Program-made: the position numbers and the translations under genes
In this document: in pieces, positions 4,609 through 7,556 of the stretch
Position numbering within the stretch: position 1 is the first letter of the stretch
How the letters are laid out: every line of letters starts with the position of its first letter
The notes under the pieces: model-generated
What the model saw: only the letters and a program-made list of their open reading frames with translations
Database searches by the model: none
What the model was told of the DNA's origin: nothing
Assembly: GCA_951406725.2 (NCBI GenBank)
Contig: OX597822.1
Span: 41,726,001-41,790,000 of the forward strand
Source of the DNA: Octopus vulgaris
Lineage: Eukaryota
Length of the DNA: 64,000 nucleotides
Direction: 5' to 3'

Positions 4609-5480
4609 TATTATATTATATAGAGGGCATTACTAAACATAAATGCTATACGCTAGGAGGGACTATGTAACTACTTGATAAATTCTTATAAAGATTTTAT
4701 CCTATTTTTAAATGATATATAAATACATATAGATAGATATATATGTATGTATGTATATATATATAGATGTATGTATATATATATATATATATCTTTATAT
4801 ATATAAAACTGAGAATGTGTGTCTGTCTGTCTCCCTAAAACTCGAGAACTACACAACCAATTTCATTCAAATTTTACACATGCCTTACTTAGGGTCCATG
4901 TAGTTTTATGGGCAAAAAAAATGTTCAACTTCTTGCCTAGAGTGAGCCCATAGCAATATCATATCTTCTCCACTATTTCAGTATTACGTGTTAAAAGTGA
5001 AACAAAAACGTTTCTCTATTTTATGTCAGATACTTTCACTTTAACAATAAAAATAATGATAACAATTGAATTATATATAGTAAGTAATAATTAAAATCAA
5101 ACTAAAGTATAATATAATCGTAAAATAACAAAAGTAAAAATAGCAATTGGTATAAAATTGCATCAATGACTTGAACTTGAATAAGTGGTTTCACATGAAT
5201 GGGAATAAATTAAAAATAAAATTAGCATGCAGAAATGGAATAGTCCAGATGGATAATAAAAAATTAAATTAAAGAAAAGACTATTGTCTATAAAGTATAC
5301 AATGTAGAGAAAAAAGGTCGTGTTTTTTTCGGCTCCTGAAATTCGGTAAAAAAGAACAAAAAGCGTTGTTGTTGTTGTGGAAATTCTGAACGGCGTTGAC
5401 GCGGTTTCGCGTTTCGCTCGTTCAGCGCGTTACACTTTTTCTGTTTTGGCGGCCGTTCTCGGTCTGTCAGACAGAAGGAA

Positions 5481-6506
5481 ATGGACTATGAGTCTCTAAC
5501 AGACTTGTCCACAACAGATGAGGAACTGGAACAGGCAATTGCAATGAAGCTGATGGAAGAAAAGGCTGGAATTTTCGAGTCTTTATCAGACCTGCCTACG
5601 TCTGAGAAAGAGCTAGAAATGGCAGCAAGGAATTTGGAAGAGAAGCTGGGTTATACCTATGCCGGTGTAACCAAGAAGGCGGAAGAGAAAGGGGTAGACA
5701 TGGCCAAGTTGCCAAGTTACCAGAAATACATGAAAAAGGAAAGCGGTGAGGTGGAACTATCACCGACACCCAGGAGAAAGGAATGGTATGATAAGAGGAC
5801 CATTATTTACAGGGTGTTCGCAAACGAAAGGAAGAGGGTAGAAGTTGTAACCATGGAATGGATAGAGGAGGCCCTGCGAAGAACTGAGGAGGAAATAAAT
5901 TTTCTGACTCGAGGATCCAAGTACGGTACCGTAGTTGTGCATTTCAAAACTGAGTCTGCAGCGAGGAAGATGGCGGCGAAGGCGGTGAAGTCAGAAAAGG
6001 TAACCCTATTACCTACGTATTTAAACAGGAGGATTACACGAATAAGGGTGGAGGGAGTGCCACCAAACGTGGAGGCAGAATGGATTGTGGCGGCTGTGAT
6101 CAGCGGCCACGAGGACGAAGTGGATATTCTCCATGCCTCGGTTAAGTCCGAGGGCTGGAGAGGCGTAACGGTGGAGCTGAACGTACAGGCAGAGACCGAG
6201 GTACTGGTGGACCTGACGGAAAGCATCAGACTGGGAGACGTGATCATGAGAGTGTGGGTGGAGGGCAGGGCTCCACGTTGTTACAAGTGTGGCCTGAGGG
6301 GTCACATAAGAGCCTTCTGCCCTCCCCAGGGAAAGAAATGGATTCCGAACCAGAGAGAGAGAAGCAGAAACCAGAGGAGAAGGAAACAGAGGAAGAGAAT
6401 ACACAGAAATGGAAGGAAGCTGGAAGTAAGAGGAAGAGAAGAATACGTGGAAAAAAAGAAAATAATATGGAACTCCAATCTACCCCAAACCACCCACACC
6501 CTCTGA
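5481..6506 (+). CDS. Gag-like/LINE ORF1 nucleic-acid-binding protein (RRM-like region plus CX2CX4HX4C zinc knuckle), N-terminal frame
   Basis: 341-aa ORF with normal composition; CYKCGLRGHIRAFC knuckle preceded by VEGRAP; YGTVVVHFKTESAA and RIRVEGVPP are RRM-like; after ~6330 the natural reading appears to move to the -1 frame. Confidence 0.8.
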   Translation: MDYESLTDLSTTDEELEQAIAMKLMEEKAGIFESLSDLPTSEKELEMAARNLEEKLGYTYAGVTKKAEEKGVDMAKLPSYQKYMKKESGEVELSPTPRRKEWYDKRTIIYRVFANERKRVEVVTMEWIEEALRRTEEEINFLTRGSKYGTVVVHFKTESAARKMAAKAVKSEKVTLLPTYLNRRITRIRVEGVPPNVEAEWIVAAVISGHEDEVDILHASVKSEGWRGVTVELNVQAETEVLVDLTESIRLGDVIMRVWVEGRAPRCYKCGLRGHIRAFCPPQGKKWIPNQRERSRNQRRRKQRKRIHRNGRKLEVRGREEYVEKKKIIWNSNLPQTTHTL

Positions 6507-6896
6507 GTCCCACCCTATCCATGCAGACATTGAACCCACCCGCTCCCCCCAACAAGAAAACAAAAGAAAAAAAAGAATACACACACACAAGAGATTGAAA
6601 TCGAACCCAGGCCGTACATTTGTACTATGACTGAACAGAAAGAAGTTAAAAGTCTAATGGAAGAGTATAAATGGTATGATGTTGGAGAGACTAGGTATGC
6701 TGTGATTGAAAAGAAGAACATAGGTGAGTTTATGGGGAGGTGTGAAAGGGAGAATTGGGAGGTGAAAGATATAAGAATGAGCGATGAATTCGTGGAAAAT
6801 ATGGATGAGTATTTCGGAGTAAGAATGGATATGGAATTTATTCGTATTGACAAAGAACATTCAAGTGACTATGAAAAACAAAGGACAGGTAAGTGA
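6329..6896 (+). CDS. Frameshifted C-terminal continuation of the ORF1 protein (acidic/basic linker plus ~100-aa terminal domain)
   Basis: -1 frame gives KEMDSEPEREKQKPEEKETEEENTQKWKEAGSKRKRR; the original frame reopens at 6534 and runs to the stop at 6896 (…EIEPRPYICTMTEQKEVK…QRTGK); joined length about 471 aa. Confidence 0.6.
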
Positions 6897-7556
6897 TGCT
6901 GACGGACGGGGCCGTTGGTATCGCTTTCATTTTATCATTTTTTCGTTTAACAATTCATTTTCATAAAGTTTAATTATAATGTTCTATGTCCCCATGTTTT
7001 GTTATGTCCGCCATTCTTCGTAGCCCCTTAGTGGGTAATAAAGAAATCACATGGAGGAAAGCACCTTCGAAAAGTGTCTTGGTGCAACTATGAAAGGTAT
7101 CTAATCAGAGGCAGTAAATTCGCCACAATAAAAGCAAGGTTCGTGTCAACGGAGCGTGCAAGGGAGTACTCAACTTGAACTTGCAAAGTGGAAATATTTT
7201 ATTTTTACCTTTATATCTGGGACATAGGACGTCCCGGAAAAAAATTTTAAATGTTCTCCCTCCCCCCCCCCCCGAAGTAGAGGTAGGCTGGATTGTAGCC
7301 ACACTTCTATACAAGAGGGAGGACAAGATACAATTGATCGAAATTACAAGAGACGGGCTAACAATTCCAGTCTGTTATATATTTTGAGTATTGTTATCAC
7401 TAGCGATATCAAGATATAACTTTGTATTTTGTATTTTATGTGTAGATGTATATATATAGATGTACACATATATACATGCACTAGCACTTTGACCCGGCAA
7501 CGACGGGTCTTTAATGCTAGTATATATATATATATATATGTAGGTGTATGTATATG

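Follow-up and report, generated by a model that had tools for sequence, protein, structure and literature searches.

The locus and the host Helitron

The 64,000-nt stretch of Octopus vulgaris DNA analysed here (the window) carries at 5317-7047 (+) a discrete insertion of about 1.7 kb, which consists of a 5' UTR (5317-5480, +), an ORF1 whose frame is broken in the window (5481-6896, +) and a 3' UTR of 151 nt (6897-7047, +) with AATAAA at 7037-7042. An earlier note on this DNA, made from its letters without database searches, had described a CpG-rich unit of about 1.7 kb with a 5' UTR and a 3' UTR of about 150 nt with AATAAA, and this outline is borne out. Its 5' end at 5315 is corrected to 5317 (±1) by empty sites in which 5316 is joined to 7048, a joint present in all four of the runs whose contigs were aligned to 4810-7510. 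The unit is a GC- and CpG-enriched island (CpG o/e 0.78, where the median of the window is 0.28), and its leader of 164 nt has 17 CpG (o/e 1.93) and no ATG; this leader is likely to be an internal promoter. Empty copies have 7-10 other letters between 5316 and 7048, so that the unit is an insertion that duplicated no target sequence and cost the target about 7 bases. In a search for target site duplications (TSD) at the unit ends, the best match was only a 7-mer 46 bases upstream. Long direct repeats such as LTRs were not found at the unit ends, and the predicted fold of the protein is RRM and not capsid, with nucleocapsid likeness limited to a CCHC knuckle; the unit is classed neither as an LTR retrotransposon nor as a retroviral gag. 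No second copy of the unit is present in the 64-kb window.

Helitrons begin with 5' TC, end with 3' CTRR, have a subterminal hairpin and insert between A and T. The unit lies within a non-autonomous Helitron at 4792-7520 (+) with TC at 4792, a hairpin at 7491-7509 (folding energy -13.7 kcal/mol for 7484-7522), CTAG at 7517-7520, and A and T as flanks. The nesting that the earlier note had seen is thus confirmed by Helitron-like ends on both sides of the unit. A Helentron was considered as the host and ruled out by the canonical Helitron ends. The 5' part of the Helitron (4792-5316, +), which starts at A|TC, ends in the A-rich insertion site and is high-copy in DNA run X12, is joined in empty copies to 7048 or 7357. 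The 3' part (7358-7520, +) is defined by the hairpin and the terminal CTAG|T.

The interval between the unit and this 3' part (7048-7357, +) had been read as plain Helitron, a view given up here, since profile matches (E 2.7e-11 for 7172-7354; E 4.9e-6 for 7095-7193) and a tblastn match of 51% to the protein P0081 identify it as the decayed, frameshifted RRM1-RRM2 region of a different, older member of the ORF1 family. Its DNA similarity to the ORF of the unit is not above that of shuffles. Many Helitron copies carry the fragment (X14 record 24 spans 7048-7391), while others skip it (5316->7357); it stands directly behind the unit tail as a retroelement piece amplified by the Helitron. In loose ends of X1 and X14, another element with a tail like that of the unit ends just before 7362; it may represent the older insertion before its deletion, or else a SINE that entered there. 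Together, the ORF1 fragment and this tail indicate that sequence which belongs to the ORF1 family or bears such a tail has entered site 5316 on two or more occasions. A relative of the unit with 89% identity has the Helitron 3' flank, and two other, non-Helitron 3' flanks are found too; a target preference for the Helitron site is hinted at. According to excerpts of PMC4494074, families of the Tx1 clade aim at other transposons and truncate their targets, which makes a Tx1-type partner plausible.

The ORF1 protein

The ATG of ORF1 is at 5481 and the last stop ends at 6896. In the window, the frame from 5481 closes at 6506 after 341 codons and coding continues in other frames, owing to frameshifts near 6323 and 6486 and, we infer, a third in the A-run near 6563-6575, all in homopolymer runs. 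X1 record 6 (6286-6865) and X6 record 29 (6232-6743) each show no substitution against the window and three extra bases; among the rows listed, two of the three are placed, behind 6323 and 6486. The three extra bases restore a frame of 1419 nt, i.e., 472 codons plus stop. The single ORF of about 471 codons claimed earlier is accordingly implied for these other holders and does not exist in the window copy, where the breaks are likely to be assembly errors or private to the window allele. In X12 the extra bases at 6323 and 6486 occur in only 47% and 10% of depth, which may reflect contig-end effects or real broken copies.

The unit protein appears to be a type I LINE ORF1 with two predicted RRMs and a CCHC knuckle. 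An AlphaFold model built from a 68-row alignment has a mean pLDDT of 88.8. Predicted RRM 1 (residues 96-183; 5766-6029, +; pLDDT about 96) has the La RRM as its best structural match (Z 9.4, rmsd 2.5 over 81 residues), and the part modelled as RRM 2 (residues 184-263; 6030-6269, +) matches, on its own, ferredoxin-like folds (Z 6.8-7.5). Foldseek gave 30 matches at E<=0.001, the best of which are tandem-RRM proteins; their TM-scores are low because the domains sit differently. The single CCHC zinc knuckle named in the earlier note is directly visible in the window translation (6279-6320, +) and zf-CCHC is matched in 14 of the 68 aligned relatives, whereas the window copy scores below the curated Pfam cut-off (13.9 against 20.8 bits, E 0.059). 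Atlas feature matches point to zf-CCHC, RRM_1 and ZCCHC3-type clusters (0.89-0.91). The combination of RRM and CCHC is that of a type I ORF1 and is consistent with the Tx1 clade, but type I ORF1 occurs in several clades and is not exclusive to Tx1 (PMC5203782, in excerpt). Transposase_22 was matched in 0 of the 68 members at E<=0.01 and in none of the window ORF pieces.

The AlphaFold check of the joined protein that the earlier note proposed thus gave tandem RRMs but no fold match for the C-terminal part of about 100 aa. These C-terminal 105 residues or so (6579-6896, +) are predicted to be alpha/beta; an alignment-free model of them (pLDDT 61) reached a best structural Z of 3.2, and no usable atlas match was obtained. 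They scored 0.2 bits against a rough profile of the C-termini of 8 relatives, one row of which is without the domain, and showed no homology in pairwise comparison with 9 relatives. Such null searches show neither novelty nor absence of homology.

Relatives and the lack of EN/RT

No endonuclease (EN) or reverse transcriptase (RT) lies between the ORF and the tail, as had been noted from the letters: no EN/RT Pfam match was obtained in the three ORF pieces, and none was found in the 68 aligned members or in 28 selected homologues. A full protein search gave 325 relatives at E<=0.001, the best with identities of 36% (222 residues) and 58% (118 residues). Among 29 representatives plus P0001, an organism is given in 17 homologue records, and in each of the 17 it is Octopus or Argonauta. 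A tree was built from the 28 rows, out of 68, that span 80% of residues 95-281; it places the window copy in a 24-row clade without inner resolution, which is split from four distant rows at 100/100. Contigs of several relatives are 1.7-2.3 kb in length, compatible with short units but no proof of them. The sole match of a word-index protein search was P0001, an O. sinensis gene model of chimeric make-up that contains 55 residues of the N-terminus. An alignment-based search of proteins of 1508-4305 residues gave no match, and a companion ('near') search matched P0018 only; both are weak negative evidence against ORF1-EN/RT fusions. Metagenome and viral scans gave nothing. The gene models P0001, P0062, P0076, P0089 and P0125 contain pieces of the ORF1 family fused to LDL-receptor, C2H2, WD40 and other domains, which is likely to be mis-annotation and may be exonisation.

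The 3' tail

The last 49 bases or so of the unit (6999-7047) align with the 3' end of a SINE-like repeat of about 230 nt that occurs at 14 places in the window, three of them with the tail. The alignment score is 47 against a background of 14.6 ± 2.9, and when 3186 window tiles are ranked, the top 5 are all tails of this kind. The repeat is presumably a tRNA/Deu-type SINE; Rfam found nothing in it and ARAGORN no tRNA, and the label of SINE is based on size and copy number. The main octopus SINEs are tRNA-Core and tRNA-Deu (PMC8967140, in excerpt). Tails in common mark a common partner LINE, as stated in part of PMC4824008, and the tail that the unit has in common with the nearby short repeats supports copying in trans by an enzyme that is likely borrowed. 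The unit tail lacks long poly-A. Other Rfam matches were microsatellite-driven only, and a conserved stem-loop in the tail is unsupported by folding (z -1.8 to +1.0). Two SINE-like insertions that were checked likewise lack a clear target duplication. At 35901-36323 (+), a SINE-like repeat is directly followed by a head-less second copy in a tail-to-body tandem, comparable to the tail-to-head joint that X12 shows for the unit's family.

An autonomous partner LINE with the tail or the ORF1 of the unit was not found in protein, metagenome and viral searches or among 124 other open frames of the window, whose Pfam scan gave no host gene, no EN/RT remnant and one sub-threshold match. At about 39477-39660 (-), a short 3' piece has the same tail behind different upstream sequence and is a candidate for a 5'-truncated copy of the partner LINE or for a third family. 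An open frame at 42762-43121 (-) with paired CxxC motifs and a YLG motif has no Pfam match; we take it to look like the C-terminal part of a LINE ORF2, with RTE-type resemblance.

Copies in sequencing runs

Of the 24 runs in the list, 19 contain half or more of the words of the unit; 16 of these are guessed to be RNA (6 studies) and 3 DNA. Contigs of four runs (X1, X6, X12 and X14) were aligned to 4810-7510, RNA status being the guess of the tool. The unit is multi-copy, as 23,323 X12 DNA contigs fall on 4810-7510, Helitron flanks included. X12 depth, which according to the tool's warning is not copy number, is 190-556 thousand in all but one of the 19 bins that make up the unit, the exception being a skipped repeat bin with 70 thousand. 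We infer from 478,085 at 5513, 31 overlapping words and single-locus depths of 30-280 a crude floor of about 55-510 copies. Depth is flat over the unit, without the 3' excess typical of 5' truncation. The junction of ORF and tail is crossed by contigs of X1, X6 and X14. X14 record 23 (17 substitutions over 6608-7045, 96%) keeps the ORF end, the 3' UTR and the tail, and X14 record 22 (53 substitutions over 6534-7077, 89%) keeps the junction and has the Helitron 3' flank.

The earlier note had named two findings that would speak against its proposal, namely that the ORF is an exon of a single-copy host gene or that the unit is a one-off internal deletion. The unit, being multi-copy with empty sites, is not a single-copy host exon, and diverged copies (89% and 96%) with the same ORF-end/3' UTR/tail junction show that it is not a one-off deletion.

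X14 record 23 was considered as a 5'-truncated copy and rejected, its loose letters resembling window 6600-6607. X14 records 18, 19, 21 and 22 are about 99.5% like the window in their 5' two-thirds and 89% in the 3' third; with similar low depth and the same Helitron flanks, they represent either a mosaic copy or two loci. The word share of X20 is 0.07, and X21 and X22, which have the study and species label of X14, hold next to no words, so that presence in a second species is not secure.

At six sites, the contigs of X1 and X6 have the letter of the window where 92-100% of X12 depth has another; they also extend across both junctions between the unit and the Helitron, and all three RNA-type runs show Helitron-filled junctions. 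If these contigs do represent RNA, its source is the window locus or allele, and it may be read-through. At 5805 and 6005, private letters of the window recur in X1, X6 and X14, and the filled junctions may therefore all be one locus.

Origin of the unit

The unit is best explained, with a probability of about 70%, as a multi-copy octopod non-autonomous LINE that encodes only a type I ORF1 and is copied in trans by the RT of another LINE, probably of Tx1 type. The earlier proposal of an ORF1-only family borrowing its RT is partly supported, in that the unit is multi-copy with a kept junction; for copying in trans, the support is the SINE-like tail. A 1.7-kb RNA would be made from the CpG-rich 5' UTR or by read-through and coated by ORF1p, which may co-assemble with the proteins of the partner by analogy with HAL1 and HeT-A. 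The EN/RT of the partner would then recognise the 3' tail and insert the copy by target-primed reverse transcription. In the window, the junctions show a 7-base target truncation and no duplication, and this copy went into a Helitron, at a position where part of an older member of the family was present before it.

Alternatively, one or a few retrotranspositions might have put the unit into the Helitron, most copies having then been made as cargo of rolling-circle transposition. This is unlikely, although several observations fit it: the flat X12 depth without 3' skew, at a level close to the 370-420 thousand of the adjoining Helitron segment 7085-7266, the Helitron 3' flank that the 89% relative has as well, and the amplification by the Helitron of the captured fragment 7048-7357. 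Against it stand the two non-Helitron 3' flanks (X14 record 23 behind 7045, and an X1 contig with a diverged tail behind 6994), which are known for 3' parts of copies only, and the X12 tail-to-head joint 7047->5323. In X14 the depth of the empty joint (637) is far above that of the filled 5' junction (9), and the filled junctions of X1, X6 and X14, if they are one locus, argue in the same direction. The Helitron flanks also appear older than the unit, with 12 of 970 sites differing from the X12 majority against 8 of 1731 in the unit (Fisher p 0.033), a weak test, for which the tool selected 40 rows out of 176 and in which one site is at 89.9% instead of 90%. Trans-mobilisation as a LINE and carriage by the Helitron can both hold in part.

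It is quite improbable that the unit arose by internal deletion, recent or rare, from a two-ORF LINE which still exists. X12 record 16 (6650-6908, 88%) has 132 further letters without match to the window and may be a relative that continues differently past the stop, and the distant homologue P0154 (861 aa) lies on a contig of 6159 nt, with room for an ORF2. Yet DNA depth does not drop between the stop and the tail (395-503 thousand at 6812-6993), copies that are 4-11% diverged have the junction in common, and the P0091/P0154 group is only 24-28% identical and stands outside the 24-row clade of the window copy (100/100). Among the 24 of 589 loose ends of X12 that are listed, there is none near the stop. 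There is none at either terminus either, an observation that counts against the trans-mobilised LINE.

ZCCHC3 is a host takeover of the same kind as L1TD1. That the window locus has been taken over in this way as an expressed gene for an RNA-binding protein is very improbable. In its favour, the dominant contigs of two likely-RNA studies represent this locus or this allele; their frame looks open and their depth is 76-168, compared with 2-8 for the listed diverged copies. More than half of the unit's words are also present in 16 likely-RNA runs, which come from 6 studies. Against it, the copy departs from the family majority at only 8 listed sites out of 1731, and 4 of the 7 checked differences change a residue, the eighth (5458) belonging to the 5' UTR. 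Moreover, the contigs extend over both junctions, which is expected of read-through, and empty alleles of the Helitron are common.

A wider form of the trans-mobilised LINE reading can be put forward tentatively, but is rather unlikely. There might have been an octopod radiation of old, diversified ORF1-only elements (relatives 25-37% identical), with one tail common with abundant SINEs, a Tx1-type partner aiming at one Helitron site and a ride on the Helitron in addition. Such a parasite would have three layers and would be copied by reverse transcription as well as by the rolling-circle route.

Comparison with known elements

ORF1-only non-autonomous LINEs are a named class that includes HeT-A, HAL1 and Ag-Sponge (PMC5786205, PMC5753468, both in excerpt). 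The unit shows two features of an ORF1-present non-autonomous LINE, namely a predicted ORF1-type protein and no EN/RT up to the 3' end. HAL1 of mammals is likewise non-autonomous, encodes ORF1p only and keeps both 5' and 3' LINE parts, as excerpts of PMC5753468 and PMC5786205 describe. HAL1 differs in that it is derived from mammalian L1 and has a type II ORF1 (coiled coil, one RRM, Transposase_22), whereas the unit has a type I protein (two RRMs and CCHC), no Transposase_22, no long poly-A and no TSD; it is therefore not a HAL1, which is defined by a mammalian-type L1 and a type II ORF1. HeT-A (Jockey-derived) and Ag-Sponge (CR1-derived) resemble the unit as ORF1-present bipartite non-autonomous LINEs (PMC5786205, in excerpt). 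A few head-to-tail joints are found in the unit's family too, but the unit shows no sign of a telomeric array and has a 3' UTR of 151 nt, one knuckle, a SINE-like tail and a place inside a Helitron.

In excerpts of PMC4494074, Tx1 is found in Tx1D, Tx1-Mar and SINEU in Mariner-N4_AMi, and Tx1-9_AMi in Harbinger. Like the unit, such Tx1-clade elements combine a type I ORF1 with insertion into a DNA transposon, target truncation and tandem insertions. Many members of the clade, not all, show a target-sequence preference, which for the unit is only hinted at. The cases named there are, in contrast, autonomous elements or SINEs, none of which targets a Helitron or encodes ORF1 alone.

A link to ZCCHC3-like proteins of the RBD-RBD-CCHC type is given, as a lead only, by an atlas feature match of 0.89 to a cluster that has zf-CCHC along with the two RNA-binding domains of ZCCHC3. 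ZCCHC3 is a single-copy host gene, in contrast to the unit, a multi-copy insertion with empty sites.

Implications

A report of an ORF1-only LINE in cephalopods was not found in the literature covered, which includes excerpts of PMC13282606, PMC9115989 and PMC4758252, repeat databases being outside its scope. A supplement of PMC13282606 has 80 L1-Tx1 and 84 Helitron families and 0 matches for ORF1 or non-autonomous; the repeat library of that study may contain the consensus of the unit. The ORF1-only strategy is thus known from mammals and insects, and its octopod type I form is provisionally new. In excerpts of PMC5786205, ORF1-only LINEs are reported from three clades only, L1, Jockey and CR1; a young, likely transcribed type I ORF1-only family from a mollusc would add one more independent origin. 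With the unit it can also be tested why elements of this sort retain ORF1 when SINEs that end in the same tail need no protein. If the Helitron site is a true target, transposon targeting of the Tx1 type extends to rolling-circle elements. The family would, moreover, explain many 'uncharacterised CCHC' gene models of octopus as ORF1s of mobile elements, which bears on claims of octopus-specific genes.
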